Origin: Candidatus Obscuribacteraceae bacterium
Lineage (GTDB): Bacteria; Cyanobacteriota; Vampirovibrionia; Obscuribacterales; Obscuribacteraceae
NCBI GenBank assembly: GCA_044229845.1
Contig: JBGASG010000002.1
Location: 160,001-224,000, forward strand
Direction: 5' to 3'
DNA length: 64,000 nucleotides
Shown: piece after piece, positions 2,531 through 22,748 of the stretch
Layout of the letters: each line of letters opens with the position of its first letter
Numbering within the stretch: position 1 is the first letter of the stretch
Translations under genes and position numbers: made by a program
The notes under the pieces: generated by a model
Databases searched by the model: none
Told to the model about the DNA's origin: nothing
What the model saw: only the letters and a program-made list of their open reading frames with translations

Positions 2531-3784
2531 TTAGCAAGCGAGCTCGTATTGCGATTGCAACTCGGACGTGGGTCCAACGACCACCAGCGAGAGCTGGTCG
2601 TTTCTCAAAAATTCATTGGCGATGTTCTTCAGTTCTTCCGAAGTCACTTTGTCGATGTCGTGACAGATCTCTTCGACTGTCAGTTGCCGACCGTAATAGA
2701 GTTCGCTGTACGCATTGCGACTGGTGCGGTAGCGCATCGATTCCAATCCGAGCAGAAGCTCCGATTTCAGTTGCGTCTTGGCGCGTTTGATTTCTTCGTC
2801 GGTCAGACCGTCCGCTTTCACTTTCTGGAACTCAGCTCCGGTCAACTCCAGCACCTGCGAAACGTGCTTGGGACTGGTGCCGGCATAAACGCCGAACAAT
2901 CCGGCTTTAGTATGGCTTTCGCGGAATGTATTGATGCTGTACACCAGACCGCGTTTCTCGCGCACTTCCTGGAACAGGCGCGATGACATGTTTCCTCCCA
3001 GGCAGAGATCGAGAATCGCCAGGGCATAACGGCGTTGATCGAGCATTTCGATACCGGGCACGGCCAGCACCAGATGCGCTTGTTCGATGTCGCGGTGTTT
3101 GACGAGGTTGAATCGTTCGTATGCCGGAGTGCCGACATCGGGCTTCTGCAACCCAACGGACAATCTATTGAGACCTCGCGACAGCTGTTCAATCACTTGC
3201 TTGTCGTCGAACTTACCGGCGATCGAGATAACAAAGTGCTCGGGGTGGTAAAAATCGCGAACATGCTCTTTGAGCATTTCGCTGGTCAGCCCGCACACGG
3301 TCTCGGCAGTGCCGGTTATCGGTCGGCTTAGAGGATGTTCAGGCCAGATGTTGGCAATCAGCGTCTCGTGCGTGACGTCCTCGGGATCGTCATCGTACAT
3401 CTTGATCTCTTCGAGGATCACCTGGCGTTCCATATCCAGGTCATCTTGCGCCAAGCGGGCGTCGGTCAGCATATCGAGCAGCAGATCAATCGCCACATGC
3501 ACACGGTCGCCCATGACGCGCCCGTAAAAACAAGTGTTCTCTTTTCCGGTGGCGGCGCCGAGGCTGCCGCCGACATCTTCGATCTCCTGCGCAATTTCGC
3601 GCGCCGTGCGCTTGCGAGTGCCCTTGAATAGCATGTGCTCGAGACAATGCGAGACACCGTTTGTCTTCAGTGTCTCGTCTTGGGAACCGACATCAACCCA
3701 CACACCAATAGAAGCGGAATACACCTCATCGACGACTTCGGTGATGATGCGCGCTCCATTGTCTAACTTTGTGGTTTGTATCAT
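2531..3784 (-). CDS. M16 family (pitrilysin-like) zinc peptidase
   Basis: HCLEH inverted zinc motif, SSRLFQEVREKRGLVY; ATG at 3784 follows GGAGA. Confidence 0.93.
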   Translation of the reverse strand: MIQTTKLDNGARIITEVVDEVYSASIGVWVDVGSQDETLKTNGVSHCLEHMLFKGTRKRTAREIAQEIEDVGGSLGAATGKENTCFYGRVMGDRVHVAIDLLLDMLTDARLAQDDLDMERQVILEEIKMYDDDPEDVTHETLIANIWPEHPLSRPITGTAETVCGLTSEMLKEHVRDFYHPEHFVISIAGKFDDKQVIEQLSRGLNRLSVGLQKPDVGTPAYERFNLVKHRDIEQAHLVLAVPGIEMLDQRRYALAILDLCLGGNMSSRLFQEVREKRGLVYSINTFRESHTKAGLFGVYAGTSPKHVSQVLELTGAEFQKVKADGLTDEEIKRAKTQLKSELLLGLESMRYRTSRNAYSELYYGRQLTVEEICHDIDKVTSEELKNIANEFLRNDQLSLVVVGPTSELQSQYELAC

Positions 3785-3857
3785 TCTCCAAACGCCGTGG
3801 CCGGGCGCTTCCGGTGCCAATTATAGCCGACTCCGGGGCAACCAACAGCAGTGAAAC

Positions 3858-3897
3858 AAACAAAAACACCACCCGAACTGAATCGCGGTGGTGTTTT
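3858..3897 (-). terminator. intrinsic terminator at the end of the repeat RNA (present in all nine copies)
   Basis: Minus strand AAAACACCACC-GCGATTCAGTTCG-GGTGGTGTTTTTGTTT. Confidence 0.8.
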
Positions 3898-4071
3898 CGC
3901 TACTGTCTGACTGCCCGTTGCTCGGGCTCAGTATTTCCTCACGCTTCAGCCAGTCCTTCACGTGGGGCGAGCTCACATCAGCTGTCGTTCCCGGTCAGCG
4001 CTGACCTGACGTTTCCGCTTGGCTCCTCGGCTCGACGCGATTGCAATTTCAGTTCAACCGCTCACCTGATG
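3858..4071 (-). ncRNA. putative structured ncRNA, unknown family (copy 1)
   Basis: -10 box TATTCT (4078-4083, minus strand), stems supported by compensatory changes among copies, terminator hairpin plus U-tract; 5' end inferred. Confidence 0.72.
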
Positions 4072-4357
4072 CATTCAAGAATACAGGTCAGTTTCACGCC
4101 CGAGAAGTACCCCAGAGGACCTTTAATAATCAGCGTTTTGCGTATACAAAACCCGCATCAGAAGCTATGGACTAGCACCACATTTGGTTAAGAAGCGCTC
4201 GATCCACGCGCGCCCCAAAGGGCTCAGGCATTCCATATTCTTTATATATAGGTACGCAATCGAATCGATCGCCCGCCCCGCCCCAATTTATATAAACGCA
4301 TCGCCAATAAGCGACTGCAGGCTCTAAAATGAGACAGAACAAAGGATCGCCACTCCA

Positions 4358-6094
4358 TTGGATCGAGACCGCGACGAGCCCCTCATAAGCAACAGCCACC
4401 CGTCCGGAGTCCTGCGCGCCGGCTACATTCTGGGCGACCGCTACCGCATCGAAGGCTGCATCGGCGCCGGGGGCATGGGCGGCGTGTATAAAGCTACGCA
4501 CATCGAACTGCGGAATACGGTCGCCATCAAAGTAATGCATTCGCGTTTCTCGGTCGACCAGAATGCAGTGGCGCGCTTCCATCGAGAAGCCAAAATCATC
4601 TCCGGACTGCATCACAAAAACATTTTGTCGGTCTACTCGTTTGGAAGCGCCGACGGACTTCTCTATTTGGCGATGGAATTCATCGACGGTCGGTCGCTTG
4701 GAGATTTGATCAGAGAACAAAAACTGCGGTCACAGAAAAACAATGCCATTGCGATTCTTCTGCAAATCTGCGATGCAATGGCTTACGCACACCACCAACA
4801 CGTATTGCACCGCGATCTCAAGCCCGACAATGTACTGATTACCAAGGCCGATCAGACAGCCAAAGTGGTCGACTTCGGATTGGCAAAATTGACTGACGAA
4901 GAAATGCAGCGACTGACAAGCACCGGTCTGGTCGTGGGAGATCCGCGCTATATGAGTCCGGAGCAGTCTCAGGGAAAACCAGTTGACGGACGCTCGGACA
5001 TTTATTCCTTTGGATGTTTGATGTACGAGCTGCTTGCCGGCCGCTGCCCATTCGATGCCGATGCGCCCGTTGCGATTCTCTTCAAACAGATCTCGGAAAA
5101 TCCCGAACTATTTGCTGACGAAACCAACCTTTCGCGCTCACTGCAAGCCATAACGCTGCAGTGCATGCAAAAGGATCCTCAGTTGCGTTATCAATCGTTT
5201 GAAGAAATTGCCGTGCAGTTGCAAATACTCGCGAGCGATCCTGATGCGAAAGTGGAAGGGAGCCACAGCAAAGCTCGTGCTGGTGCTCAAAAACATCCGG
5301 CATCCCCACAAAAAAAACGATTGCTCGCCGTCTTTACCGGGGTGGTTATCACTACGCTTGCCGGTCTGTGTGTGCTGCTTCTCTTGACCCAGTCAAACTC
5401 AAACACGAACGCAACCGGTAAGGATCAGCAAACCGATCACGATCTGCGCCAAGTGCTGGAAAAACTCAAACGCTCATACCACGACGAAGCAAAGTACAAA
5501 AGGGAGTCGCTGGAAGCAGAAAGCATCGCGTCCCAAAATCCCGGCGCGGTCAGTCCTCTTTATCGGGGGCGACTTGATTACGTTCACGCCAGGGTGCTGC
5601 AAGTGGAGACGTATCGATCAAGACCAGTTGAGAAACAGCAGCCCGGCTGGGAACAGGCGCTTAGCTACAGTCGCAAGTCAGTAGTTGAACTAAAGAAGGC
5701 GCGAGCAGATGACGCTTCCTCCTACAGCACTCACACGCGCACGGCAACCGGCTTGCTGATGATGAAGGAAGAAGATCAATATTTCTTCGATTCGATTTTG
5801 CTTTGGCAAGCGATGGCGGAGAAGTGCAATCGGGCCAATGAAGTCGAATCCTCAATGAACGAGATAATGGACTTCTGCGAACGATTCAAAATCGAATCCG
5901 ACTCCGCACCACGCATGACTCCGCTGTGGCAGCTGAAGATCAGTCGCATCGTGCAGACCGGCGATCGGACTGCAGCAAAAACCATCGCCGAGCGCTATTT
6001 GCGGTGCCTGAGGAAACAAGGCTATAAAGCAAGCTTTATTGACGATCAGGTGCGCGCAGTCAGAGCATTGGCGGGAATCGACTTACCGAATTGA
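4358..6094 (+). CDS. receptor-like Ser/Thr protein kinase, array paralog 1
   Basis: GAGGMG, VAIK, HRDLKPDN, DFG, YMSPE, DIYSFG; one TM segment; divergent helical C-terminal domain. Confidence 0.95.
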   Translation: MDRDRDEPLISNSHPSGVLRAGYILGDRYRIEGCIGAGGMGGVYKATHIELRNTVAIKVMHSRFSVDQNAVARFHREAKIISGLHHKNILSVYSFGSADGLLYLAMEFIDGRSLGDLIREQKLRSQKNNAIAILLQICDAMAYAHHQHVLHRDLKPDNVLITKADQTAKVVDFGLAKLTDEEMQRLTSTGLVVGDPRYMSPEQSQGKPVDGRSDIYSFGCLMYELLAGRCPFDADAPVAILFKQISENPELFADETNLSRSLQAITLQCMQKDPQLRYQSFEEIAVQLQILASDPDAKVEGSHSKARAGAQKHPASPQKKRLLAVFTGVVITTLAGLCVLLLLTQSNSNTNATGKDQQTDHDLRQVLEKLKRSYHDEAKYKRESLEAESIASQNPGAVSPLYRGRLDYVHARVLQVETYRSRPVEKQQPGWEQALSYSRKSVVELKKARADDASSYSTHTRTATGLLMMKEEDQYFFDSILLWQAMAEKCNRANEVESSMNEIMDFCERFKIESDSAPRMTPLWQLKISRIVQTGDRTAAKTIAERYLRCLRKQGYKASFIDDQVRAVRALAGIDLPN

Positions 6095-6095
6095 A

Positions 6096-6309
6096 AAACA
6101 AAAACACCACCCGAACTGAATCGCGGTGGTGTTCATGCTACTGCCTGACTGCCCGTTGCTCGGGCTCAGTATTTCCTCATGCTTCAGTCAGTCCTTCACA
6201 TGGGGCGAGCTCTCATCAGCTGTCGTTTCCGGTCAGCGCGGACCTGGTGTTTCTGCTTGGCTCCTCGGCTCGACGCGATTGCAACATCAGCTCAATCGCT
6301 CACCTGATG
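6096..6309 (-). ncRNA. putative structured ncRNA (copy 2)
   Basis: As copy 1. Confidence 0.7.
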
Positions 6310-6438
6310 CATTCAAGAATACACGGCAGCTTCATACCGGAGAAGTACCCCAGAGGACCTTTAATGATCGGCGCTTCGCGTATACAGAACCCACACCAGG
6401 AGCTATAGACCGGCACCACATTCGGTTAAGAAGCGCTC
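6096..6438. repeat. ~343-bp repeat, copy 2
   Basis: Collinear with copy 1. Confidence 0.97.
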
Positions 6439-6604
6439 GATCCACGCGCGCCCCAAAGGGTTCCGGCATTCCATATCGTTTATACAAGTACTTATATATA
6501 AACGCGACAGCGATCCGCCCTAAAGTCACCCGGTTCCATATAGACACATCGCTAACTATCAACCCGAGAGCGTAAAATGAGAAGGAACAAAGGAAGCATC
6601 GTAA

Positions 6605-8338
6605 TTGGATCAAGACCTCCCGAGCACCATACAATCCGGCACGATTCTCGACGGCAAGTACCGCATCGAAGGCTACATCGGCGCGGGCGGTATGGGTAGC
6701 GTCTACAAAGCGATACACGTGCAGCTCGGCAACCCGGTCGCCATCAAAATCATGCACCCGCGGTTTTCACTCGACACCAATTCGACAGCCAGGTTCCACA
6801 GAGAAGCGAAGATCATTTCCGGGCTGCATCACAAGAACATTCTGGCGGTCTATGCATTTGGTTCCAGCGACGGATCTCTATACATGGCAATGGAATTCGT
6901 TGATGGGCAGTCGCTAGGAGATCTGATCAGGGAGCGCGGACCGATGGCGCCGGAAAGTGCAGTACAAATACTCCTACAGATTTGCGAGGCGATGACCTAC
7001 GCGCACCGGCACAAAGTATTACATCGCGATTTAAAACCAGACAACGTACTTTTGGAGCGAGACACCGCGCTGGCAAAAGTCGTCGACTTCGGACTGGCTA
7101 AACTGACTGACGCGGAAACGCAACGACTGACGAGTACCGGCATGATCGTCGGTGACGCGCGCTACATGAGCCCCGAGCAATCGCAAGGCAAGCCGATCGA
7201 TCAACGTTCAGACGTGTACTCATTCGGCTGCCTGATGTATGAAACACTTGCGGGACGCTGCCCGTTTGAAGCAGATACGCCGGTTGCGGTTTTGTTCAAG
7301 CAAGTCTCAGAGGATCCGCAGCCCTTCGCCGCCGATTCGAATATCTCGCGTTCGCTGCAGGCAATTACACTCCAGGCAATGCAGAAGGAGCAACAACAGC
7401 GCTATCAATCGTTTGAAGAGATCGCCACACAATTGCAAAAACTCGTCGGCGATCCAAATGCAAAAGTCGACGGCAGTCACCGTAAAGCATTACCAAAATC
7501 GGCCGGCTCAGGCAGAATGAACAAAGCCACGGCGCTCACAGCGGTACTACTCCTCGCCCTGGCAGCAGTACTGGTGCAGCCGTTGCTGGCATTTTTTCTG
7601 CCGCGCGCGCTGGACAACGAGAACACAACCGGCAATCAGCAATCGAAGCGAACGGCAGAAATGCAAATAGCCAACTTGATACGACAACTAGTATTGCGCG
7701 GTCCTCGCGACGAGCAATTCAGCTCGCTTCTCAACGAAGCCGAATCAATTGCAAAGCAAAATCCTGACATCGACCTCGCGTTCAAGGGTCGTCTCAAATT
7801 TATGCACGGGCGATTAATCGAATCCCGCCACCTAGCAACACACGCCAAGCCAAATATCTTCAGCGATCTGAAGGCTCAAGATAAGCGCAACCTGCAGGAG
7901 GGGCTAAATTACAGCCGCATTGCGGTAAACGAATTACGACAGTCCATGACCGACGCGGAATCGCATCGTGTCTGGAAATCAGAAACCGCCAGTGGATTGA
8001 AACCTCTGCTCGTCGAAGAAATACACTTTCTCGAGTCGCTGGCGCTCTGGCGAGAGATGTCCATTCTGTGCGATTCGTTTTCGGAGATAGAAGCTGCTTC
8101 GGCCCAGATATTTCAAATCTCGGATAGATACAAAATCGACTACGCCAACGAAGCATTAGTGCGCTCTGCGTATGCCGAGTTGATCGAGTTTTACAGGCTT
8201 CGGCACAAGACGTCCGCTGCCGACATCTTGACGAAACGCTATCTGGACAATTTGAAACTGCAGGGCTGCGATCCGCTATTCATCGCCGATGAGCAAAAGC
8301 GGCTACAAACGCAAAAACAAAAACACCACCCGAACTGA
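6605..8338 (+). CDS. receptor-like Ser/Thr protein kinase, paralog 2
   Basis: Complete Hanks motifs, TM segment; ends KQKHHPN inside repeat 3. Confidence 0.95.
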   Translation: MDQDLPSTIQSGTILDGKYRIEGYIGAGGMGSVYKAIHVQLGNPVAIKIMHPRFSLDTNSTARFHREAKIISGLHHKNILAVYAFGSSDGSLYMAMEFVDGQSLGDLIRERGPMAPESAVQILLQICEAMTYAHRHKVLHRDLKPDNVLLERDTALAKVVDFGLAKLTDAETQRLTSTGMIVGDARYMSPEQSQGKPIDQRSDVYSFGCLMYETLAGRCPFEADTPVAVLFKQVSEDPQPFAADSNISRSLQAITLQAMQKEQQQRYQSFEEIATQLQKLVGDPNAKVDGSHRKALPKSAGSGRMNKATALTAVLLLALAAVLVQPLLAFFLPRALDNENTTGNQQSKRTAEMQIANLIRQLVLRGPRDEQFSSLLNEAESIAKQNPDIDLAFKGRLKFMHGRLIESRHLATHAKPNIFSDLKAQDKRNLQEGLNYSRIAVNELRQSMTDAESHRVWKSETASGLKPLLVEEIHFLESLALWREMSILCDSFSEIEAASAQIFQISDRYKIDYANEALVRSAYAELIEFYRLRHKTSAADILTKRYLDNLKLQGCDPLFIADEQKRLQTQKQKHHPN

Positions 8339-8528
8339 ATCGCGGTGGTGTTTATGCTACTGCCTGACTGCCCGTTGCTCGGGCTCAGTATCTCCTCACG
8401 CTTCAGCCAGTCCTTCACGTGGGGCGAGCTCACATCAGCTGTCGTTTCCGGTCAGCGCTGACCTGGTGTTTCCGCTTGGCTCCTCGGCTCGACGCGATTG
8501 CAATTTCAGTTCAATCGCTCACCTGATG
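8315..8528 (-). ncRNA. putative structured ncRNA (copy 3)
   Basis: As copy 1. Confidence 0.7.
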
Positions 8529-8657
8529 CATTCAAGAATACACGGCAGTTTAGCGTACGAGAAGTACCCCAGAGGACCTTTAATGATCTACCTTACGCGT
8601 ACACGAACCCCGCACCAAAAGCTATTTCCTTGCACCACATTTGGTTATGAAGCGCTC
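8315..8657. repeat. ~343-bp repeat, copy 3
   Basis: Collinear with copy 1. Confidence 0.97.
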
Positions 8658-8823
8658 GATCTATGCGCGCCGCAATGAGTTCCGGCATTCAATATCGTTT
8701 ATACAGGTACTTATATATCGATGCGGCGAGAAACCCGCCCAGGGTCGCTCGATTCTATATAGGCGTATCGCCAACTATCGACCGGAGAGCGTAGAATGAG
8801 AAGGAACAAAGGATCGCCCAAGC

Positions 8824-10587
8824 TTGGATCACACAGACGAACAGCAACTTGCCTCGAATACGCAGTCGCTTGCGGGCGGCGGATTGTCCACAGGCACGAT
8901 TCTTGACGGCAAATTTCGCATTGGTAGCTATATCGGCGGTGGAGGCATGGGCGCAGTCTTTAGCGCCACTCATCTGAAGTTAGGAAATCAGGTAGCCATC
9001 AAAGTTCTGCACTCTCGATTTGCGGTCGATCAAAATGCGGTGGCACGGTTTCATCGCGAAGCAAAAATCATCGCCGGGCTGCACCACAAAAACATTCTTT
9101 CCGTCTACGCTTTCGGTTCAGCAGATGGGCTCTTGTACATGGCAATGGAGCTTGTCGACGGCAAGTCGCTTGGAGACCTGATCGCACAGCACGGATCGTA
9201 TTCACCGGAGCGAGCCATTCCCCTTCTTCTTCAGATTTGCGATGCCATGAGTTATGCGCACCAACAAAAAGTCTTGCATCGCGACTTGAAGCCGGACAAC
9301 GTGCTCGTAACCAATGCCGATGACACAGCAAAAGTCGTCGACTTCGGGCTGGCAAAACTTACTGATGCAGAGATGCAAAGACTGACCACCACCGGCATGG
9401 TGGTCGGCGATCCGCGCTACATGAGCCCGGAGCAATCACAAGGCAAGCCGGTCGATGCTCGCTCCGACATCTACTCTTTCGGTTGCTTGATGTATGAAAT
9501 GTTGGCCGGAAGGCGTCCGTTCGACGCTGATACACCGGTTGCAATTCTTTTCAAGCAGATCTCCGAATACCCCGAATCTTTTGCAGATCAGACCAACATT
9601 TCACTGTCGCTTCAGGCGATAGCGTTTCAGGCTCTGCAAAAAGATCCGCAGGCACGGTATCAATCAATTGACGACCTGTCCAGCCAACTGCTCAAGTTGT
9701 CGCGAAATCCAGATGCAAAAGTCGAAGGAGTACGCGCTGGTGGCACGCCTACCCAGTCGCGCAGCACAACCGGAAGTCGCGCAGCGCGCCAGCATGCACT
9801 AAAAATGCTGATCGGTGCATTGCTAGTTGTGGGAGCAATCACGGTCGGCATGGTCATCATTGGCACCAGCACTCGACTGAGCAACGAAGAAGGGCTGCGA
9901 GCAAGCACCCGGCACGAAGTCAGACTTGAGTTCGACTCGCTGATTTCCAACCAGGGCTTTGTCGGCGACCAGAACCCCACAGACGCTCTGGAGCGAGCGC
10001 AAATCCTAGTTGCCCAGTACCCAGAGGAATTCAATTCCAGCGATCGAGCGAAGCTTGATTTGGTACAGGCTCTGAATTTCGAGAGGCTGGGTCGTTATAG
10101 AGAACCAGACAAAATAAAACTCGCGCAGACGCATAACAAAGGGGCCATTTCTCAACTGGAGACTGCCCTCAAAGTACATTCCGACCATCGCCGCCAAAAC
10201 AACATGCCCACGACGGATGCCGGCATGGAACCCTGGAGTAGTGATTCACGTTATTTATTTGAAGCACTACTGCTCCAATCAAGGTTGGCCGATCGAACCG
10301 GCGACCTCAAAGAGATGCGGAGCGCCATAGACTCGCTCCTCTCATTCGCAGAAAAATACGAGTTACCCTACACCATAGACAGGCGCCTGCTAAGAGAGGC
10401 GTGCGAAAGGTTGATTATGGCTTACGGTCAAGCGAACGACAGGCAGGCAGCAGAACAAGTACTGCAGCGCTTTATGAATTGCCTGGCAACTCAAGGTGAC
10501 ATCACCGCATTTACCGATAACGATGAACGATTGCTGCGCGACACCATGGAAAAGGCCTTCGACAAACAAAAACACCACCCGAACTGA
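8824..10587 (+). CDS. receptor-like Ser/Thr protein kinase, paralog 3
   Basis: Complete Hanks motifs, TM segment; ends KQKHHPN. Confidence 0.95.
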   Translation: MDHTDEQQLASNTQSLAGGGLSTGTILDGKFRIGSYIGGGGMGAVFSATHLKLGNQVAIKVLHSRFAVDQNAVARFHREAKIIAGLHHKNILSVYAFGSADGLLYMAMELVDGKSLGDLIAQHGSYSPERAIPLLLQICDAMSYAHQQKVLHRDLKPDNVLVTNADDTAKVVDFGLAKLTDAEMQRLTTTGMVVGDPRYMSPEQSQGKPVDARSDIYSFGCLMYEMLAGRRPFDADTPVAILFKQISEYPESFADQTNISLSLQAIAFQALQKDPQARYQSIDDLSSQLLKLSRNPDAKVEGVRAGGTPTQSRSTTGSRAARQHALKMLIGALLVVGAITVGMVIIGTSTRLSNEEGLRASTRHEVRLEFDSLISNQGFVGDQNPTDALERAQILVAQYPEEFNSSDRAKLDLVQALNFERLGRYREPDKIKLAQTHNKGAISQLETALKVHSDHRRQNNMPTTDAGMEPWSSDSRYLFEALLLQSRLADRTGDLKEMRSAIDSLLSFAEKYELPYTIDRRLLREACERLIMAYGQANDRQAAEQVLQRFMNCLATQGDITAFTDNDERLLRDTMEKAFDKQKHHPN

Positions 10588-10777
10588 ATCGCGGTGGTGT
10601 TAATGCTACTGCCTGACTGCCCGTTGCTCGGGCTCAGTATTTCCTCATGCTTCAGTCAGTCCTTCACATGGGGCGAGCTCACATCAGCTGTCGTTTCCGG
10701 TCAGCGCGGACCTGGTGTTTCTGCTTGGCTCCTCGGCTCGACGCGATTGCAACTTCAGTTCAATCGCTCACCTGATG
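10564..10777 (-). ncRNA. putative structured ncRNA (copy 4)
   Basis: As copy 1. Confidence 0.7.
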
Positions 10778-10906
10778 CATTCAAGAATACACGCCAGGTT
10801 CGAGCCCGAGAAGTACCCCAGAAGACCTTTAATGATCTACATTACGCGTATACAAAAATGGCACCATTACTTATTCTCCGGCACCACATTCGGTTATTGA
10901 GAGCCG
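10564..10906. repeat. ~343-bp repeat, copy 4
   Basis: Collinear with copy 1. Confidence 0.97.
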
Positions 10907-11063
10907 GATCAATGCGCTCAGCAAGCGGCTCGGGCGTTCAATATGCGCAATATATAAATCCCGATCAAGGTGTATCCAAAATTCCCCCGGATCGATATAG
11001 CACATCGCCAATTTCGTACTTCAGGGCATAAAATGAGAGAGAAGAAAGGATCAAAGTGGCATA

Positions 11064-12851
11064 GTGGAATCCCAAGAAACAGCCGGCGCACTGCCCAACG
11101 GCACTGTCGTCGACGGCAAATTCGAAATCACCGGATTCATCGGCGCCGGCGGCATGGGCACCGTCTATCGCGCCCGCCACATTGAGCTGGGCAGCGCCGT
11201 GGCCCTCAAAACACTGCACCCGCGTTTTTCGGTGGACCAGGACGCGTCCGCTCGTTTTCGTCTCGAAGCCAAGATCATCGCCGGGCTGCACCACAAAAAC
11301 ATTCTGGCCGTGCACGCGTCCGGCTACAGCAACAACTTGCTCTACATGGCAATGGAATTGATCGAAGGAACTTCGCTGAGGGCAATGGTTGCAGAAGGCG
11401 GCTCCCTGAGCACCAGCGCAGCGTTGCCTCTTTTGATCCAGATTTGCGACGCGATGATTTATGCACATGCCAACAAGGTTTTGCATCGCGACTTAAAACC
11501 GGACAATGTATTGATCGAAACCAGGGGCACCGAGCGAACTGCCAAGGTCGTCGATTTCGGACTGGCTAAATTGACCGACATCGAAATGCAACGCTTGACA
11601 CAGACTGGGATGGTCGTCGGCGATCCGCATTTCATGAGCCCCGAGCAGGCTCAAGGCAGACAGGCGGATGAGAGGTCGGACATCTACTCATTCGGTTGCT
11701 TGATGTATGACGTGTTGTCAGGCAAGCCTCCCTTCGAGTCAGACTCCGATGTGGCGGTGCTCTTCAAGCAGGTCTCCGACGAACCACAACTCTTCGCAGA
11801 CGCGAAGGCGCCCGCGTGCTTGCGGTCGTGTCAATCGATTTGCTTTCAGGCGATGGAAAAGAATCCGGAGAGTCGATATCAGTCTTTTCAGGAAGTTCGC
11901 AATGAGTTGCAGAAACTTGCAGACAATCCCGATGCGAAGATTTCCGCCTCGTCAAGAATGGCTAAGGAGGCCGCAGCGGGACGAGGTCCCGGAGCGCACA
12001 AATTCCGTCGTTTGCCTGCAACAGTTGCCGCCGTTGCGTTGTTTGCGCTGCTTTGCTTCGCGGCTGCGAAGTTCTTGCACCAAGAAGATGCAGACACACC
12101 GACCGACAAAACCCCGTCGACTGCATCCCAACCCGACGTCGCTAAATTGAAGGAAGCGTACAAGAACCTCAGCGAACGCGATGCACGAGAGAGAGTCAAA
12201 GAATTGATTTCGGTGCTCCAGCGCGCACATCTTTCGGAGTCCGCACGAAAAGCGACTTTTGCAGAGCTGGACATTGCGGAATCGCGTATCGGTTTCGACC
12301 CATTGCAGAGCGGACGTGCCGAATACGAACGAGCGGCATCAATGATGCGCTCCGTAATGGAGCAACCGCAGAGGAATCTGACCATGGATACGGTCGAAGG
12401 TCGCGAAGCCATCGAGCATTGCCGCAAGGCGCTCGCTCACTACAATAAGATCATCTCGCTCTACCAGCGCAGACCAACAGTGAACGACGCAGAGCTGAGC
12501 GATATCAACGCCGCCTCCGTTGAACTGTACCGCACTTACTCTCTCCTGATTCAGATCGCGAATACATACAGTGACTACAAAACAGTGAAGAAGGCCGCGA
12601 AAGAGTGCGTTCGACTCTGCGAATACGCGAAAGTGCCGCCAGGCACTCTGGAAGCTTGCCAGACAGCATTCGACACACTGATCATGATCGACGTTCAAGA
12701 CGTTGATACTGAGGGCGCGCAGAGTATGTCGCAGCGCAAGTTGGCTTTTCTAAAATTGCAGGGCTTCGATGCCGATTCGCTGAAGGAAGAGAAAAGAAAC
12801 CTGACAATCAAGATGCGGGAATGGTCAAAACAAAAACACCACCCGAACTGA
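11064..12851 (+). CDS. receptor-like Ser/Thr protein kinase, paralog 4
   Basis: Complete Hanks motifs, TM segment; ends KQKHHPN. Confidence 0.95.
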   Translation: MESQETAGALPNGTVVDGKFEITGFIGAGGMGTVYRARHIELGSAVALKTLHPRFSVDQDASARFRLEAKIIAGLHHKNILAVHASGYSNNLLYMAMELIEGTSLRAMVAEGGSLSTSAALPLLIQICDAMIYAHANKVLHRDLKPDNVLIETRGTERTAKVVDFGLAKLTDIEMQRLTQTGMVVGDPHFMSPEQAQGRQADERSDIYSFGCLMYDVLSGKPPFESDSDVAVLFKQVSDEPQLFADAKAPACLRSCQSICFQAMEKNPESRYQSFQEVRNELQKLADNPDAKISASSRMAKEAAAGRGPGAHKFRRLPATVAAVALFALLCFAAAKFLHQEDADTPTDKTPSTASQPDVAKLKEAYKNLSERDARERVKELISVLQRAHLSESARKATFAELDIAESRIGFDPLQSGRAEYERAASMMRSVMEQPQRNLTMDTVEGREAIEHCRKALAHYNKIISLYQRRPTVNDAELSDINAASVELYRTYSLLIQIANTYSDYKTVKKAAKECVRLCEYAKVPPGTLEACQTAFDTLIMIDVQDVDTEGAQSMSQRKLAFLKLQGFDADSLKEEKRNLTIKMREWSKQKHHPN

Positions 12852-13041
12852 ATCGCGGTGGTGTTTTCGCTACTGCCTGACTGCCCGTTGCTCGGGCTCA
12901 GTATTTCCTCACGCTTCAGCCAGTCCTTCACGTGGGGCGAGCTCACATCAGCTGTCGTTCCCGGTCAGCGCTGACCTGACGTTTCTGCTTGGCTCCTCGG
13001 CTCGACGCGATTGCAATTTCAGTTCAATCGCTCACCTGATG
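12828..13041 (-). ncRNA. putative structured ncRNA (copy 5)
   Basis: As copy 1. Confidence 0.7.
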
Positions 13042-13170
13042 CATTCAAGAATACACGGCAGTTTCATACCCGAGAAGTACCCCAGAAGACCTTTAATGAT
13101 CCGCACCACGCGTATACGGAAATGGCACCATCGCTTATTCCCTGACATCACATCCGGTTATCGAGCGCCC
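12828..13170. repeat. ~343-bp repeat, copy 5
   Basis: Collinear with copy 1. Confidence 0.97.
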
Positions 13171-13329
13171 GATCAATACGCTGCGCAAGAAGCTCCAGCG
13201 ATCCCTATATCATTCATATCGATTCGGCGACGGCGACATAACTGCAGCACCACGGATCGATATAGCTGTATCGCCAATTCCCGACTCGATGACCTAAAAT
13301 GAGAGAGAAGAAAGGATCGAGTCGCCAGC

Positions 13330-15111
13330 GTGGATCAGGAAAATCTATCTTCAGCAGACGGCGGCCAGGCTGCCAATCACGCGGCGCTGGCGGCGGGAAC
13401 CATCCTCGACGGCAAGTATCGCATCGAGAGTTTCGTCGGCGGCGGCGGCATGGGATCGGTCTATCGAGCCCATCACCTGGAACTGGACAAAGAAGTTGCG
13501 ATTAAGACCATGCATCCGCGGTTTTCAGCCGATGCGGAATCAGTGGCGCGCTTTCAGCGCGAAGCGCACATCATCTGCGAGTTGCACCACAAAAACATTC
13601 TTGCCGTCTACGCCTTCGGCATCGACAAGCAGCTCGATCTTCTTTATATGGCGATGGAGTTTGTCCAGGGACAATCGCTGGGACGACTGATTGCCGAACG
13701 CGGAGCGATCAGTCCCCAACAGGCTCTGCCTCTGCTGATGCAAATTTGTGATGCCATGGCATACGCGCATGCCAATAACGTCCTGCATCGCGATTTAAAA
13801 CCGGACAACGTGCTGATTGCAAATTCCGAAAGCGGTGAACCGGTTGTGAAGGTGGTCGATTTCGGACTGGCAAAAATAACTGATGCCGAAATGCAAAAAC
13901 TGACCAGCACCGGCATTGTGGTCGGCGATCCTTATTACATGAGCCCCGAACAGGCACAGGGACGCACAGTCGATGCGCGATCAGACATTTATTCTTTTGG
14001 CTGCCTGATGTACGAAGTGCTGACAGGTGAGCGTCCGTTTGTGGGCGAGTCGACTGTGGCGATCTTATATAAGCAAATCGGCGAGAGCCCACCACCTTTT
14101 CCTGAAGCAAAGACCAACCTGGCTCGATCGTGCCACTCGATTGTTTTCGAAGCGATGCAGAAATCGGTCGACAAGCGTTACCAATCTTTCGCAGACATCG
14201 GACAGCAACTGGCCAAGCTGCATGCCGACCCGGACGCAAAGGTGGAAGGCATTCAATCGGTTCCGACTTCTCGCGGCATCAGCAGCCCGTCGCGCATGTT
14301 ATCAACCAAAACTGTAATCCGCGTTCTCGCCGTCGTACTGCTGGTGGCAGTGCTGCCCGCAGTTTCTTTTCTGATCCTCAATCCGCGCAAGGTGTCGCCA
14401 ACCAAAGTTGAACCCGACGATGGATACAGCACCTTATCAACAGCCGATGTGCGCGCGCGAGTAAATCAATTGCTTTCGCTCACTAGAGATTCCGAATATC
14501 AGGTCGACCGCGCCGAATCTGCAATGCGCGAGTTGGAAATAGCACGAAAACACATAGGCGAAGACCCTTTTATGCAGGGACGGATCGATGCCCACCATGC
14601 CGTAGTCTTACGGCTGAGAATGCAAAAAACGAACTCGAATGCTGAGTACACCAAACAGATCGCATTTGGGCAAAAAGCCGTCGACGAATTCGATACCGCT
14701 GCTCGGCTGAGCGATGCCGGCGGACGTTATACCGCAGTCAATCAAACCGCCAGTCTGGAACACATCAGAAAAGAGCAGTTGTGGGCGCTGGAAGTAATCC
14801 GCGAAACCGCGCAAGAGATCGGCGACAGAAAAACAGCGCGCGCTGCTGCAAATCGCATTCTCGAGCTCTGGGAACACGTTCCGACAAAATCGCCCGACCC
14901 GATCGTTGAGAGTGCGTTCGACGAGTTACTTGAGTGCAGCCTGAACGAGGATCATCCCGAGGAAGTCGAGAAAATTGCAAAGCGCGCTATGGAGTATTAC
15001 CAGCACACCAAGTGCGACGTCTCGTTCATCCAAAAGCAAAAGAAGAAACTTGACCTGGCACGGTCGCTGGCAACACAGAAGCTGGCAAAACAAAAACACC
15101 ACCCGAACTGA
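13330..15111 (+). CDS. receptor-like Ser/Thr protein kinase, paralog 5
   Basis: Complete Hanks motifs, TM segment; ends KQKHHPN. Confidence 0.95.
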   Translation: MDQENLSSADGGQAANHAALAAGTILDGKYRIESFVGGGGMGSVYRAHHLELDKEVAIKTMHPRFSADAESVARFQREAHIICELHHKNILAVYAFGIDKQLDLLYMAMEFVQGQSLGRLIAERGAISPQQALPLLMQICDAMAYAHANNVLHRDLKPDNVLIANSESGEPVVKVVDFGLAKITDAEMQKLTSTGIVVGDPYYMSPEQAQGRTVDARSDIYSFGCLMYEVLTGERPFVGESTVAILYKQIGESPPPFPEAKTNLARSCHSIVFEAMQKSVDKRYQSFADIGQQLAKLHADPDAKVEGIQSVPTSRGISSPSRMLSTKTVIRVLAVVLLVAVLPAVSFLILNPRKVSPTKVEPDDGYSTLSTADVRARVNQLLSLTRDSEYQVDRAESAMRELEIARKHIGEDPFMQGRIDAHHAVVLRLRMQKTNSNAEYTKQIAFGQKAVDEFDTAARLSDAGGRYTAVNQTASLEHIRKEQLWALEVIRETAQEIGDRKTARAAANRILELWEHVPTKSPDPIVESAFDELLECSLNEDHPEEVEKIAKRAMEYYQHTKCDVSFIQKQKKKLDLARSLATQKLAKQKHHPN

Positions 15112-15301
15112 ATCGCGGTGGTGTTAATGCTACTGCCTGACTGCCCGTTGCTCGGGCTCAGTATCTCCTCACGCTTCAGCCAGTCCTTCACGTGGGGCGA
15201 GCTCACATTAGCTGTCGTTTCCGGTCAGCGCTGACCTGACGTTTCTGCTTGGCTCCTCGGCTCGACGCGACTGCATTTCTCAATCAATCGCTCACCGGTA
15301 T
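15088..15301 (-). ncRNA. putative structured ncRNA (copy 6)
   Basis: As copy 1; -10 box reads TAATCT. Confidence 0.7.
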
Positions 15302-15431
15302 GCAAATAAGATTACCGCGCGAATCGCCGCCCGTGAAGTACCCCAAAGGACCTTTAATGATCCGCATTCTGCGTATACAGAAGTGGCATCATCACTTATT
15401 CCTCGGCACCACATCCGGTTATTAAGCGCCG
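15088..15431. repeat. ~343-bp repeat, copy 6
   Basis: Collinear with copy 1; mosaic of the copy 1-5 and copy 7-9 types. Confidence 0.97.
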
Positions 15432-15585
15432 GATCAATAAGTGCGGAAAGCGCTTCCGGCGTTTCATATGCGCAATGCATAAGAACAGATCCGCTTACTA
15501 TCCGATGCGCCACCGCTTGCATATAGCAAGGCCGACAAGTGTCGCCGTCAGTGGAATAATGAGACTGGCATAACTGAGATTCATT

Positions 15586-17304
15586 GTGGAAGACAGCTCA
15601 TCCGACAAGCAACCTATCCTGCTAGAGCCAGACGAGATACTGGAAGACAAATATCGCGTCGTCCGCTTTCTCGGCCGCGGTGGCATGGGCAGCGTCCATG
15701 AGGCAATCCACACACACCTCGGCAACCGCGTTGCCATCAAGCTCTTGCATCCCCGTTTGTCAGGCGATGAAAAGCAGCTCGCCAGGTTTCAGCGTGAGGC
15801 GCACATCATTTCGGGGCTGCGACACAAGAACATCTTGTCGGTCTATGGCTTTCATCGCTGGCGCAACATGCCTTTTATGGCGATGGAGTTTATCGAAGGG
15901 GAATCGATCCGCGATCTACTGATAGAGCGGCAGGGCAATCTCTCAGCAACGGAGGCGCTGCCCCTGTTTCTGCAAATCTGCCAGGCTATGCAATTTGCTC
16001 ATAACAACAGCGTGCTGCATCGCGACCTCAAACCAGACAATGTGCTGGTTGTGAAGGAGAGCGACGGCTCACTGACGGCAAAAGTCGTTGACTTCGGACT
16101 GGCCAAACTGCAAGGGACCAACGAGATGCAGAAACTGACCAGCACCGGGCAGGTGGTCGGAGACCCGCATTATATGAGCCCCGAGCAATGCCAGGGCACG
16201 CAGCTCGATGCGCGCTCGGACATCTATTCATTCGGTTGCCTCATGTATGAAGTCTTGACGGGCGCGCGACCGTTCCTCGGCGATTCACCGGTTGCCACCA
16301 TGTATGAGCATCTGCAGAAAAACGCCAAGCCGTTTGCGAAACAATGCGGATTGCCGCTGGCAATCGAAGGCATCGTATTCAAGGCGATTGCCAAGGACCC
16401 TCGCCATCGCTACCAGTCTTTTGAAGAGCTGGCGGCTGACTTAGAAGAATTCTCCCGCAATCCGCAGATGCCGAGCATGCGTGCCGTGTCCGCCCCCACA
16501 GGTGGTGGCATGACTCCCGCAGCAAGAAGTGCCGTTTTGATCATCTTGCTCGGAGCGCTCATCTGCCTGCTTTATGTGTTCAGCCGCCCGCAGGCAGCAA
16601 CCGATCCTTACGCCAACATCTCCGACTCAGAGTTGCGAGCCCGCGCTGTTCCGGCATTGGCGAAGGCGCGCGATGCTTCGCGCAACCACGAGTTCGAGCA
16701 AGCTGATTCGTTTCTCGCCACAGTAGACGAACTGCGCAAACACCTGAACAACGACCCTTATCTCGAAGGGCGCATTGATTATCAACATGGCGAACAGTAT
16801 CTCGAAAGATTCAGAGTCACCCAAAACAAAGAGTTTGCCGCCTTAGCCAAACAATACTTGCTGAAGGCTGATGCCGACTTCAAAAGGGCCCGTGCGTCCT
16901 TATCGGCGACAAGCGGAAAGACTCAGCTGCACGACATCGAATGGCAGATGATCTCCAATCTGGACATGCTGCTCGCGGTCGGGCTGGAATCCTCCGGCTC
17001 CACAGCGGGTGACGAAGCATCGCAGCGACTGCTGGAAGAACTAGAACAAGCACCGCCACCACTGGAGTACATGCAGGGACATTCGGTGCAGAAGGCATTC
17101 AACTGGCTATTCACGCGCCGCATCAGCGAAGGGAAACCTGACGCGGCGGCGGCTCTACTGATACGCAAAATCGATTTTTCCTTACGGCAAGACTCCGATA
17201 CCGACTTTATTGCGCGGGAGAAAAAACGCATGCTGTCTGAAATCGCCGCCGTCGATCCCGTCCTGGCAAAACGGGTGCAGCAGCGGCTGGAAAAGCGCAA
17301 GTAA
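15586..17304 (+). CDS. receptor-like Ser/Thr protein kinase, paralog 6
   Basis: Complete Hanks motifs, TM segment. Confidence 0.95.
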   Translation: MEDSSSDKQPILLEPDEILEDKYRVVRFLGRGGMGSVHEAIHTHLGNRVAIKLLHPRLSGDEKQLARFQREAHIISGLRHKNILSVYGFHRWRNMPFMAMEFIEGESIRDLLIERQGNLSATEALPLFLQICQAMQFAHNNSVLHRDLKPDNVLVVKESDGSLTAKVVDFGLAKLQGTNEMQKLTSTGQVVGDPHYMSPEQCQGTQLDARSDIYSFGCLMYEVLTGARPFLGDSPVATMYEHLQKNAKPFAKQCGLPLAIEGIVFKAIAKDPRHRYQSFEELAADLEEFSRNPQMPSMRAVSAPTGGGMTPAARSAVLIILLGALICLLYVFSRPQAATDPYANISDSELRARAVPALAKARDASRNHEFEQADSFLATVDELRKHLNNDPYLEGRIDYQHGEQYLERFRVTQNKEFAALAKQYLLKADADFKRARASLSATSGKTQLHDIEWQMISNLDMLLAVGLESSGSTAGDEASQRLLEELEQAPPPLEYMQGHSVQKAFNWLFTRRISEGKPDAAAALLIRKIDFSLRQDSDTDFIAREKKRMLSEIAAVDPVLAKRVQQRLEKRK

Positions 17305-17359
17305 CCGCGGCGACAGGCGGTAGCATATACTAGTTAGGACACCGAGCGTACCTAAACCA

Positions 17360-19270
17360 TTGGATCCGGACGAGACACCGAACGACCCGCAAAATTCCAA
17401 CCATGCGCCGTCACCGTCGCTGCAGCCGGGCGCGATCATCGATGAGAAGTACGAACTGAAAAAGTTCATCGGCATGGGAGGCATGGGCGCGGTCTACAGC
17501 GCGGTACACCGGCAACTGGGAACGGACGTCGCCATTAAGGTGCTGCATCCTCGCTTCGGCGTCGATCAAGAATCGGTGGCCAGGTTTCAGCGGGAAGCAC
17601 GCATCATAGCCTCATTGAGACACGCCAACATTCTCAGTGTGTACAGTTTCAATTCATGGCAGGGCATCTTTTACATCGCCATGGAATTGATCGAAGGCGA
17701 TTCGCTGGTGGCATACATTTTTGACGGCGACAGGCTGCGCAAGCCTGAGGATAAACTGCCTTTGCTCATACAAGCCTGCCGAGCAATGAGCTTCGCACAC
17801 AAGAACGGCGTGCTGCATCGCGACCTCAAACCCGACAACGTGCTGGTCGTGAACAACCCCGACGGCAGTCAATCAGCGAAAGTTGTCGACTTCGGATTGG
17901 CAAAACTGCAGGGTGCTTCCGACGTACAACAACTGACGCGCACCGGCGAAGTGTTCGGCGATCCCAATTACATGAGCCCCGAGCAATGCCAGGGCAAGCC
18001 ACTCGATGAACGCTCCGATATCTATTCATTTGGATGCCTCATGTATGAATTATTTTCCGGGGTGAGACCGTTTGAAGCCGACACACCGCTCGGCACTCTC
18101 TACAAACACTTGCAAGACAACCCGCAGCGCTTCGCCAAACAAGTGGGGATTTCCAGTGCGCTGGAAGAAATCATTTTTCGCGCCATGGAAAAATCGCGCG
18201 AACAACGCTACGAGTCATTCGACGAAATCGCCGCCGACCTGACCCGCTTCATCGATAACCCGCAATTGAAGGCGAGCAGCTCGGTGCCTCCGGGTGGTTT
18301 TTCAGGACGGCGCCCAGCCGTACGCAACACCGCATCTGATACCAGCGGCTCAGCGTGGCGCAAAGTTTCGTCGCGGGTGATGCTGATTGTTCTTTGCCTC
18401 TTGCCCGCAGTGACTGCCGCGGTTGTCCTGATGACTCGGCGCGATGCAGAAAATGATGGTGGTCATGGTACTAGCGATGATGGTCGACACGGATTCGTCA
18501 ACCTGTCCCAGCTCGAATTGCGCACGCGAGCACTTGAGCTTTGTTCGCGCACAGCGTTGCTCGTAGCCCGAGAACGTTTTCCAGAAACAGAGACCAACCT
18601 GGCTGAACTGGATCAGCTGCGCCTGCATCTGGAGCACCAGCCCTACGTCGAAGCTCAGATAGATTTTCTGCACGGGTGGTATCAGTTGCAGATGTATCGC
18701 CGGTTGAAAGTACCGGCAGACGGAAAGAACGGAGTGAATTACCTGCGACGCTCGCTGCAAGAATACGACCAGGCATACGCCGATGCCTCCGCCAATGGTG
18801 GCGAGGCTAGTAAAACACGACTGGATGAAATAGCCACTCACAAATTCGAAGCCGCCGATCAATTGCGCTATCTGGGACTCGCTTCTGATGATGCACAAGC
18901 CACACGCCAGGGAGCATTGGAAGTAATCAGGCTGGTCAGACACCTGCCCGATAAACCGGACTACGACCAGTTGAAGGCACTGCAGCAGTCGTACGACGTA
19001 CTGATTCAAATGAATGCCGCCAAAGGAAATTACGAGCGCGCACTGAAGCTGATGTGGCGCAAACTTACTTTTCTCGAACGACAAGGATGCGATCCGGCTT
19101 TCGTTGCCAGTGAACGCAAACGCCTGGAAGTTATGATCAACGAATTGGGCGGTGCCAAAGCGGTGACTCAACTGTCGCCGAAACTGGAAGCAGAGATTCG
19201 CAAGCAATCAGCTTTGCGACACGGCTCCGCGCCCAGTGCCGACCCCGGCATCGACGATATCGAGAAGTGA
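17360..19270 (+). CDS. receptor-like Ser/Thr protein kinase, paralog 7
   Basis: Complete Hanks motifs, TM segment; no repeat between it and paralog 6. Confidence 0.95.
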   Translation: MDPDETPNDPQNSNHAPSPSLQPGAIIDEKYELKKFIGMGGMGAVYSAVHRQLGTDVAIKVLHPRFGVDQESVARFQREARIIASLRHANILSVYSFNSWQGIFYIAMELIEGDSLVAYIFDGDRLRKPEDKLPLLIQACRAMSFAHKNGVLHRDLKPDNVLVVNNPDGSQSAKVVDFGLAKLQGASDVQQLTRTGEVFGDPNYMSPEQCQGKPLDERSDIYSFGCLMYELFSGVRPFEADTPLGTLYKHLQDNPQRFAKQVGISSALEEIIFRAMEKSREQRYESFDEIAADLTRFIDNPQLKASSSVPPGGFSGRRPAVRNTASDTSGSAWRKVSSRVMLIVLCLLPAVTAAVVLMTRRDAENDGGHGTSDDGRHGFVNLSQLELRTRALELCSRTALLVARERFPETETNLAELDQLRLHLEHQPYVEAQIDFLHGWYQLQMYRRLKVPADGKNGVNYLRRSLQEYDQAYADASANGGEASKTRLDEIATHKFEAADQLRYLGLASDDAQATRQGALEVIRLVRHLPDKPDYDQLKALQQSYDVLIQMNAAKGNYERALKLMWRKLTFLERQGCDPAFVASERKRLEVMINELGGAKAVTQLSPKLEAEIRKQSALRHGSAPSADPGIDDIEK

Positions 19271-19280
19271 AAACGCGCAC

Positions 19281-19495
19281 AAACAAAAACACCACCCGAA
19301 CTGAATCGCGGTGGTGATCATGCTACTGCCTGACTGCCCGTTGCTCGGGCTCAGTATTTCCAAACGCTTCAGTCAGTCCGTCACGTAAGGCGAGCTCACA
19401 ACAGCTGTCGTTCCCGGTCAGCGCTGACCTGATGTTTCCGCTTGGCTCCTCGGCTCGAAGCAATTGCATTTCTCAATCAATTGCTCACCGGTTAT
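19281..19495 (-). ncRNA. putative structured ncRNA (copy 7)
   Basis: As copy 1; extended -10 TGcTATTCT. Confidence 0.7.
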
Positions 19496-19625
19496 GCATA
19501 TAAGAATAGCAAGCTTTCGCAGACCCGACCACTACCCCAAATGACCTTTAATGATCTAATTTTCGCGTATACGAAAGGCGCATCAACACCTATTCTTTGA
19601 CACCACATATGGTTTTTAAGCGCTC
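19281..19625. repeat. ~345-bp repeat, copy 7
   Basis: Collinear with copy 1. Confidence 0.97.
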
Positions 19626-19781
19626 GGCCAACAAGCTGCGCAAGCGATGGCGCGATCGAATATGCGATACATATCACCGAACGCGCATGCCATTTCAAGA
19701 AACTTTCAACCGCACCTCACTAGCATGTCGGCAAAAGCAAGCAGTCCTTGTATAACAGAGGAAGGCACAGGGTTTTCAAGA

Positions 19782-22618: not shown

Positions 22619-22748
22619 GAAAGTAAGAATAGCGCGGATCTCGAGGTTCGACCACTACCCCAAATGACCTTTAATGATCTTCGTTTTGCGTATACAAAAG
22701 CGGCATAAACACTTATGTCTTGGCACCACATTTGGTTACTAAGCGCTT
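22404..22748. repeat. ~345-bp repeat, copy 9
   Basis: Collinear; most divergent 5' stem. Confidence 0.97.

Follow-up and report, generated by a model that had tools for sequence, protein, structure and literature searches.

Several bacterial small RNAs are encoded by sets of sibling genes, each with its own promoter and terminator, as in the NsiR1 tandem array of Nostoc, Qrr1-5 and the csRNAs; these RNAs are short and seed-based. The poplar-1 RNA, Rfam family RF03041, was reportedly described by Weinberg et al. 2017 (NAR 45:10811) from metagenomes, with no host organism assigned. The word 'poplar' does not occur in the main text of PMC5737381 (its supplement lies outside this statement), and a full-text literature search returned no paper with 'RF03041' and none combining 'Obscuribacter' with 'non-coding RNA'. 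Here we analyse a window of 64,000 nt from a Candidatus Obscuribacteraceae bacterium (assembly GCA_044229845.1, contig JBGASG010000002.1, positions 160,001 to 224,000 of the forward strand), in which a 300-nt repeat occurs nine times with 66-100% identity to copy 1. The nine repeats are copies of the catalogued poplar-1 family, hence not a new RNA.

When the whole window was compared with Rfam 15, ten matches exceeded the gathering scores: nine to RF03041 and one to a transfer RNA (tRNA). All nine copies are matched on the minus strand over the full model (positions 1-141), at 131.7-137.2 bits for a gathering score of 110.5 and with E-values from 1.2e-30 to 3.1e-29. They are the sole RF03041 matches in their own assembly (5.16 Mb, 22 contigs, 88% complete). 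The unpaired blocks of the Rfam consensus are present in the copies as well, and among the invariant or nearly invariant columns of our alignment A1 (see below): GAGCCGAGG, GGAAAC twice, UGaCUgaag, GAAAUACUGA and GCAA. The predicted genes measure 214-218 nt. Cores and genes are as follows, with the start of each repeat in brackets.

3896..4036, minus strand: copy 1 (3858), core, RF03041 positions 1-141, 137.2 bits, E-value 1.2e-30
6094..6309, minus strand: copy 2 (6096), predicted gene, core 6134-6274, 131.7 bits
8313..8528, minus strand: copy 3 (8315), predicted gene, core 8353-8493, 137.0 bits
10564..10777, minus strand: copy 4 (10564), predicted gene, core 10602-10742, 131.9 bits
12827..13041, minus strand: copy 5 (12828), predicted gene, core 12866-13006, 135.1 bits
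15087..15302, minus strand: copy 6 (15088), predicted gene, core 15126-15266, 136.8 bits, -10 box TAATCT
19281..19496, minus strand: copy 7 (19281), predicted gene, core 19319-19459, 133.9 bits
21135..21350, minus strand: copy 8 (21135), predicted gene, core 21173-21313, 135.4 bits
22402..22619, minus strand: copy 9 (22404), predicted gene, core 22442-22582, 135.2 bits

Relatives were gathered by an RF03041 search of related genomes and by a pattern scan of one genome per species, which gave at least 160 stretches. The pattern-scan loci were selected by a motif inside P4-P5, and variation 5' of the pseudoknot is bounded by that pattern; the loci from the RF03041 search and those of the sister family are free of this limit. 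From 259 nhmmer hits in the relatives' loci we retained 158 distinct copies with complete flanks, reduced by a k-mer filter to 133 representatives. Together with the nine window copies they form alignment A1 of 142 sequences. The structure tested on it comprised the Rfam helices, a 5' hairpin, the pairing CUGRCU/AGYCAG and the terminator, that is, 52 pairs and 7360 cells.

The whole structure is paired in 97.6% of these cells, against 83.2% in shuffles, and none of 500 shuffles did as well. Forty of the 52 pairs change on both sides, and sliding the partners by 1-3 columns lowers the paired cells to 31-41%. The Rfam helices P1-P5 are paired in 94.8-98.6% of cells. In the following list, copy 1 coordinates precede the number of pairs changed on both sides.

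4061-4055/4043-4037, minus strand: 5' hairpin, arms GCGGUUG and CAAUCGC, 6/7, 93.4% of cells paired
4025-4022/3972-3969, minus strand: P1, 3/4
4019-4017/3982-3980, minus strand: P2, 3/3
4006-4002/3997-3993, minus strand: P3 (GGUC/GACC), 5/5
3967-3960/3944-3937, minus strand: P4, 6/7
3953-3948/3912-3907, minus strand: pseudoknot CUGRCU/AGYCAG, 3/6, 99.6% of cells paired
3933-3930/3904-3901, minus strand: P5a, 1/4
3927-3923/3917-3913, minus strand: P5b (GCCCG/CGGGC), 3/5
3858..3895, minus strand: terminator, hairpin ACACCACC.GCGA/UCG.GGUGGUGU with U-tract UUUUGUUU, 10/11, 99.5% of cells paired

Without any imposed structure, RNAalifold recovered the 5' hairpin, P1-P4, P5b and the terminator on the 142 sequences; of its 55 predicted pairs 42 are compensatory, and the covariation term amounts to -10.57 kcal/mol. 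At one P1 pair the window genus reads GGAGC/GCUC where other sequences have GGGGC/GCCC, a G-C pair in 122 sequences and A-U in 17. Thirty-five columns are invariant and many more nearly so; most of them fall in loops and junctions, whereas variation and covariation are found in the helices. The conserved stretches are GAGCCGAGG, GGAAAC twice, GAAGGACUGRCUGAAG and GAAAUACUGAG. A truncated poplar-1 was seen in one relative (L175:196-508, minus strand), its 3' half and terminator intact and its 5' half replaced by unrelated sequence.

A preliminary description of this DNA, made from the letters of the window, had proposed a structured minus-strand RNA gene of about 210 nt with compensatory changes, and the full-length matches, predicted lengths and double-sided changes reported above bear this out. 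Covariation persists once homologs are added. The 5' stem does keep its pairing through the variants listed there: GCGGUUG/CAAUCGC in copy 1, GCGAUUG/CAAUCGC in copies 2-5, GCGAUUG/CAGUCGC in copy 6, GCAAUUG/CAAUUGC in copies 7-8 and CGUCG/CGACG in copy 9. The hairpin GGUC/GACC turned out to be P3 of the Rfam model, and GCCCG-AGCAA-CGGGC its P5b; the terminator with a U-tract holds too. As to CUG(G/A)CU/AGUCAG, the pairing holds and its reading as a nested helix enclosing P5b does not: CUGRCU lies in the loop of P4, so that its pairing with AGUCAG makes a pseudoknot. The G-U-tolerant substitutions, too, read as had been said on the minus strand: the same 52 pairs are canonical in 97.6% of cells in the minus-strand reading versus 92.1% in the plus-strand one, 437 of the 7360 cells being G-U. 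The minimum free energy points the same way, with -81.5 kcal/mol (z -2.84) for the sense strand versus -67.9 kcal/mol (z -1.30) for the antisense.

One helix of that description failed. For the closing helix GGUGAG/CUCGCC, none of the six pairs changes on both sides, and 77.8% of its cells are paired versus 77.7% in shuffles, 213 of 500 of which reach that value; its A-U pair exists in just 18 of the 142 sequences. CUC is part of P1; GGUGA supplies one strand of a kink-turn signature on which the 5' hairpin sits. Kink-turns consist of a 3-nt bulge followed by tandem G-A/A-G pairs, with a canonical stem on one side and a non-canonical stem on the other. Here one strand reads [GGU]-GA-[hairpin arm] and its counterpart [hairpin arm]-NNN-GA-[GCC]; in copy 1 the parts are placed as follows.

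4029..4066, minus strand: kink-turn signature with the 5' hairpin, outside the RF03041 model
4066-4064, minus strand: GGU
4063-4062, minus strand: GA of the 5' strand
4036-4034, minus strand: bulge GUC
4033-4032, minus strand: GA of the 3' strand
4031-4029, minus strand: GCC

In the RNAalifold structure GGU is joined to the GCC of GAGCC, and one pair of this helix is G-C in 138 sequences and A-U in two (L029 and L084). Among the 142 sequences, three of which were not evaluated, the 5' GA is found in 138/139, the 3' GA in 138/141 and GGU/GCC in 134/139, and a canonical closing pair stands exactly 3 nt before the 3' GA in 134/139. The match is one of sequence, and the three-dimensional kink is putative; if real, it would serve the RNA's own tertiary fold.

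Each copy has the makings of its own transcription unit. A TAnnnT -10 box lies 11-13 nt before GGUGAG in every copy and TAnnnT is kept in the relatives of A1; the box TATTCT, its variant TAATCT in copy 6 and the extended form TGCTATTCT in copies 7-8 stand as the preliminary description quoted them. Further upstream we find an element of the form GT-N10-AC, 22-23 nt from the -10 box, with no -35 box at standard spacing.

4078..4083, minus strand: -10 box TATTCT of copy 1, transcription start predicted near 4071
4106..4124, minus strand: upstream promoter element AAAGGTCCTCTGGGGTACT of copy 1, GT-N10-AC, 23 nt upstream of the -10 box

The consensus of the upstream element in A1 is TTAAATGT..T.TGGGGTACTTC, its order-wide form also TTAAATGT..TGGGGTAC, and in the window genus it reads AAAGGTC...TGGGGTA. 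The expression GT-N4-6-GGGGTA[CG]T-N18-26-TAN3T occurs at nine places in the 5.16-Mb genome, all of them poplar-1 promoters. In the sister family, where the cores score 95.7-109 bits, just under the Rfam cut-off, all 11 of 11 copies keep the element, the leader, the hairpin, the pseudoknot (as UUUGGCU/AGCCAAA) and the terminator. At the other end, a hairpin followed by the U-tract UUUUUGUUU on the transcribed strand makes an intrinsic terminator. It is strong and covaries only with itself, its 5' arm having no covarying alternative partner. A pairing of the leader with that arm as an anti-terminator was considered and set aside: by eye in A1, the leader is invariant and the arm covaries with its own partner.

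Farther upstream than the promoter, another block, some 85 nt long, is kept in all nine copies (4125-4190 in copy 1; columns 60-118 of alignment A2). Read on the plus strand, its invariant motifs are GCGTATAC and GCACCACAT-N2-GGTT; among 107 copies checked, both occur together only in the same-genus record (L044, L070). A sigma-54-like reading of GCACCACAT-N2-GGTT was discarded, as its GG is not conserved and the block is genus-specific.

Open reading frames (ORFs) of 105-149 amino acids overlap the RNA genes on the plus strand, at these positions.

3769-4191, plus strand: overlapping ORF
6091-6408, plus strand: overlapping ORF
6126-6575, plus strand: overlapping ORF
8289-8678, plus strand: overlapping ORF
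10594-11031, plus strand: overlapping ORF

A frame stays open through the element in 58 of the 142 sequences when all three antisense frames are pooled, and in 1/142 in the sense direction; the element lengths, 209-226 nt, fall into all three modulo-3 classes (39, 46 and 57 sequences). We rejected a coding role, and the plus-strand ORFs over the RNA genes would be false gene calls.

Among the genomes searched, poplar-1 is confined to Obscuribacterales, non-photosynthetic relatives of cyanobacteria. In the window's family (f1), 84 of 90 genomes have RF03041 matches, as have all three of a sister family of the same order (f2), with 1-14 matches per genome and several in most of the genomes that bear it. 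No match came from 57 genomes belonging to eight further families of the class, from 150 others sampled across the phylum or from 14 control genomes. Likewise, among the matches listed in the pattern scan, almost all titles are metagenome-assembled genomes named 'Candidatus Obscuribacterales', 'Obscuribacteraceae', 'Obscuribacter' or 'Melainabacteria'. A few loci carry other titles (L057/L067, L078, L080/L089, L099, L108 and L116: Bryobacterales, Proteobacteria, Actinobacteria, Oculatellaceae, Planktothrix and Alphaproteobacteria) and are probably mislabelled or come from mixed bins.

The RNA is present in public RNA libraries and probably abundant there. A search of public runs returned 19 RNA runs from sludge, wastewater and compost with a small share of a 2.7-kb stretch. 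Contigs of four of these runs, from four studies, were then compared with the locus at a likeness of at least 90%; the small shares in the other runs are no evidence of habitat. Contigs lie on copy 1 in all four and on copy 2 in three of them. The summed word depth over the RNA gene reaches 387,666 in run X3, 10,388 in X5, 309 in X2 and 6.6 in X19; in the M16 peptidase gene next to it, the bin with cover has a depth of 4.5 in X3 and 4.9 in X5. Long clean pieces on the peptidase gene indicate that the organism or a close relative was present in these last two runs. In the four runs the promoter and kinase bins are mostly uncovered, with a few kinase bins at a depth of up to 3.8, which is not evidence of silence. 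A preprint (10.1101/2025.10.18.683149) counts poplar-1 among small RNAs for which intracellular RNA from drinking water is enriched.

Along the window, the RNA genes and seven plus-strand paralogues of a receptor-type Ser/Thr kinase alternate (Pkinase E-values from 1e-46 to 1e-54). All seven consist of a kinase domain at the N terminus, a single membrane-spanning segment and a C-terminal part, about 230 amino acids long, that matches nothing in Pfam. Four of the frames end inside RNA terminators. These four share the ending KQKHHPN-stop, which is the plus strand of the U-tract, 3' arm and loop of the minus-strand terminator; each convergent overlap spans 24 nt.

4358-6094, plus strand: kinase ORF
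6605-8338, plus strand: kinase ORF ending in the terminator of copy 3, overlap 8315-8338
8824-10587, plus strand: kinase ORF ending in the terminator of copy 4, overlap 10564-10587
11064-12851, plus strand: kinase ORF ending in the terminator of copy 5, overlap 12828-12851
13330-15111, plus strand: kinase ORF ending in the terminator of copy 6, overlap 15088-15111
15586-17304, plus strand: kinase ORF
17360-19270, plus strand: kinase ORF
20024-21130, plus strand: kinase remnant at the end of the tandem array (array span 4358-21130), also delimited as 19647-21130
2531-3820, minus strand: M16 peptidase gene following copy 1 on the same strand

The RNA genes have a mean identity of 89.9% and their cores of 91.7%, versus 51% for the co-duplicated kinase genes, whose C-terminal part diverges fast (40% nucleotide identity). 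This points to strong constraint on the RNA, or to gene conversion. Just past the last array unit, beyond a DUF1232 gene (22720-23460), lies the tRNA gene (23471-23542, plus strand, 68.7 bits). Elsewhere in the window a 95-nt direct repeat occurs at 34554-34648 and 39473-39567, 88% identical and 4.9 kb apart.

Outside this genus the neighbourhood changes. Among 150 of 168 neighbour ORFs scanned, kinase domains stand beside poplar-1 only in the same-genus record (L044, L070 and L071) and in L098; elsewhere the genes are unrelated, and we rejected a family-wide link to kinases. Of 183 distinct copies, 54 have a downstream neighbour on their own strand within 700 nt, 51 have one on the opposite strand, and in 78 it is absent or far; the corresponding numbers upstream are 49, 41 and 93. 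The neighbouring gene families are diverse, with some loci syntenic across genera, where an M16 peptidase, UbiD, a pyridoxal-phosphate-dependent enzyme and topoisomerase I, among others, recur. The M16 peptidase follows poplar-1 on the same strand in nine loci of relatives (L028, L031, L035, L047, L058, L077, L079, L080 and L087), abutting it or up to about 400 nt downstream. This locus is one of conserved synteny across many genera and possibly holds the ancestral poplar-1 copy. Since both neighbours and orientation vary, the link to kinases is local to this genus; varied neighbours together with some synteny fit old, independently transcribed paralogues and do not fit a cis-regulatory leader.

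We now propose, with slightly better than even confidence, that poplar-1, an RNA of about 215 nt made in several copies from a dedicated promoter, folds compactly and acts in trans. Each repeat core is an independent gene, transcribed on the minus strand from a predicted start a few bases past the -10 box. The RNA folds into five covarying helices and a pseudoknot of 6 bp, with the 5' hairpin placed on the kink-turn signature, and ends at its intrinsic terminator. It would act in trans through its three-dimensional fold, binding a protein or a small ligand rather than pairing through a short seed, and the sibling copies would mainly raise and co-regulate its dosage. A dimeric activator may bind at the upstream element, at about -41.5, and one candidate is the single CRP/FNR-family protein found in this genome. 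The interleaved kinases would stem from local tandem duplication in this genus of a unit made of one RNA gene and one kinase gene, with no family-wide functional link. Action through the fold is suggested by loops and junctions fixed across the order, covarying helices, the pseudoknot, the kink-turn signature and the GCAA loop; such features are typical of RNAs that bind proteins or ligands and less so of seed-based small RNAs.

Several points weigh against this proposal. Word depths sum over relatives and are a poor measure of expression, and the contigs carry neither strand nor transcript ends; the transcription start is a prediction. The activator idea draws on the spacing and half-site shape of CRP/NtcA-type promoters, and the genome's one clear CRP/FNR-family protein, encoded at 273770-274327 of contig C6, is far below the NtcA cut-off: the best TIGR03697 match reaches 96.7 bits for a threshold of 244.95, and we therefore dismissed an NtcA orthologue in favour of a generic family member. 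Proteins of the CsrA, Hfq, Ro/TROVE and L7Ae families were not found in the genome, which at 88% completeness does not prove their absence; poplar-1 as a CsrA sponge, or as a partner RNA of Hfq, Ro (like Y RNA) or L7Ae, was set aside accordingly. The conserved unpaired stretches could equally be base-pairing seeds, and the target scan was crude. Finally, kinase frames that end in RNA terminators make a local antisense effect possible in this genus.

Alternatively, poplar-1 could be a family of classical base-pairing sibling small RNAs, in which one of the invariant unpaired stretches is a seed for messenger RNAs and the helices serve only as scaffold and terminator. We regard this as possible, though rather doubtful: one promoter and terminator per copy, the many co-regulated copies, the unconserved neighbours and the Rfam type of poplar-1 ('Gene; sRNA') all suit it, but nearly all loop and junction nucleotides are kept across the order along with a pseudoknot and a kink-turn signature, as is typical of RNAs that work by their fold. 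In a simple genome scan the complements of five conserved stretches were found 28, 83, 128, 0 and 2 times for 22.8, 83.7, 83.7, 1.7 and 0.1 expected, without clear enrichment over chance, and no Hfq was found in the 88%-complete genome. A more ambitious form of action through the fold would cast poplar-1 as a catalytic RNA, a ligand sensor or the core RNA of a ribonucleoprotein specific to the order: the kink-turn would fold the hairpin onto the pseudoknotted core, the invariant junctions (GAGCCGAGG and both GGAAAC strands) would form a binding or active site, a CRP-family activator would switch synthesis on and off, and in this genus the kinases would be wired in by overlap. We consider this model unlikely in its entirety; if true, it would reveal a major unrecognised regulatory system of Obscuribacterales, abundant in wastewater sludge.

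The remaining explanations place the action in cis or deny the RNA. In this genus, convergent transcription with the 24-nt overlap might let the abundant RNA, or the act of transcribing it, damp or gate the upstream kinase, and the divergent promoter region might couple the downstream one. The alternation with seven paralogues, the four shared endings inside terminators and the far-upstream block kept in all nine copies speak for such a role; yet among the 150 neighbour ORFs scanned kinases are nearly absent beside poplar-1 outside the genus, where unrelated genes occur in either orientation, and the far-upstream block is itself genus-specific, making this quite improbable and at most a secondary local use. 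Lower still we rate a cis-acting, riboswitch-like leader whose terminator is a conditional expression platform, for instance for the M16 peptidase after copy 1. The fold rivals riboswitch aptamers in intricacy and the peptidase recurs on the same strand in nine relatives' loci besides the window, but among the 183 copies no consistent same-strand regulated gene is found, with nearly as many copies facing an opposite-strand gene; the terminator is strong and self-covarying, its 5' arm has no covarying alternative partner, and in copy 1 a TATAAT-type box stands between terminator and peptidase gene. This makes a leader very improbable. As for a repeat acting at the DNA level (a mobile element or protein-binding array) or a plus-strand coding sequence, the overlapping ORFs and the dispersal of copies in relatives could recall either, but no frame is conserved, lengths fall in every modulo-3 class, the compensatory and G-U changes are consistent with a paired RNA read from one strand, and contigs from RNA libraries cover the element; we give it next to no credence.

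The trans-acting RNA we favour can be compared with known systems on several levels. Class II CRP/NtcA-type promoters carry GTA-N8-TAC about 22 nt upstream of TAN3T. The poplar-1 element is like them in half-site shape and spacing; its half-sites (TGTCC..GGGGTAC) differ from those of NtcA sites. The kink-turn signature agrees in sequence with that of ribosomal Kt-7, box C/D RNAs and several riboswitch aptamers; no binding protein of the L7Ae family was found in the 88%-complete genome.

6S RNA (RF00013) is likewise a stand-alone non-coding RNA of about 200 nt, but poplar-1 does not have its long irregular helix with a central bubble. RF00013 has no match in the window or in the whole of its own genome. 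In the families that bear poplar-1, 6S-like matches occur in 43 of 90 genomes of f1 and in 3 of 3 of f2. These matches are mostly sub-threshold and full-length, exceeding the cut-off in just 4 of 151 genomes, and this order's 6S RNA seems to depart from the Rfam model. Because 6S-like loci co-occur with poplar-1 in relatives, we rejected the idea that poplar-1 is a 6S stand-in, even though its own genome has no RF00013 match.

With NsiR1, Qrr1-5 and the csRNAs poplar-1 shares many near-identical, often clustered genes, each with a promoter and a terminator, and a common promoter motif; it differs from them in its length of about 215 nt, its five helices, its pseudoknot and its invariant loops. 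With the poplar-1 motif of RF03041 there is no difference in kind: helices P1-P5 and the conserved blocks are common to both. The pseudoknot, in which the P4 loop pairs with the internal loop of P5, is added here to the printed RF03041 helices; cmscan output shows no pseudoknots, and this one may have been annotated before. Beyond the model, the copies show the 5' hairpin on its kink-turn signature, the terminator that completes an extended transcript, a dedicated promoter element and a host lineage, to which the comparison of relatives adds syntenic loci and cover in RNA libraries. Altogether, an orphan RNA becomes testable, with a defined transcript of about 215 nt, a candidate regulator site and mutable architectural motifs; these give handles on what a conserved RNA with many copies does in a little-studied lineage akin to the cyanobacteria.

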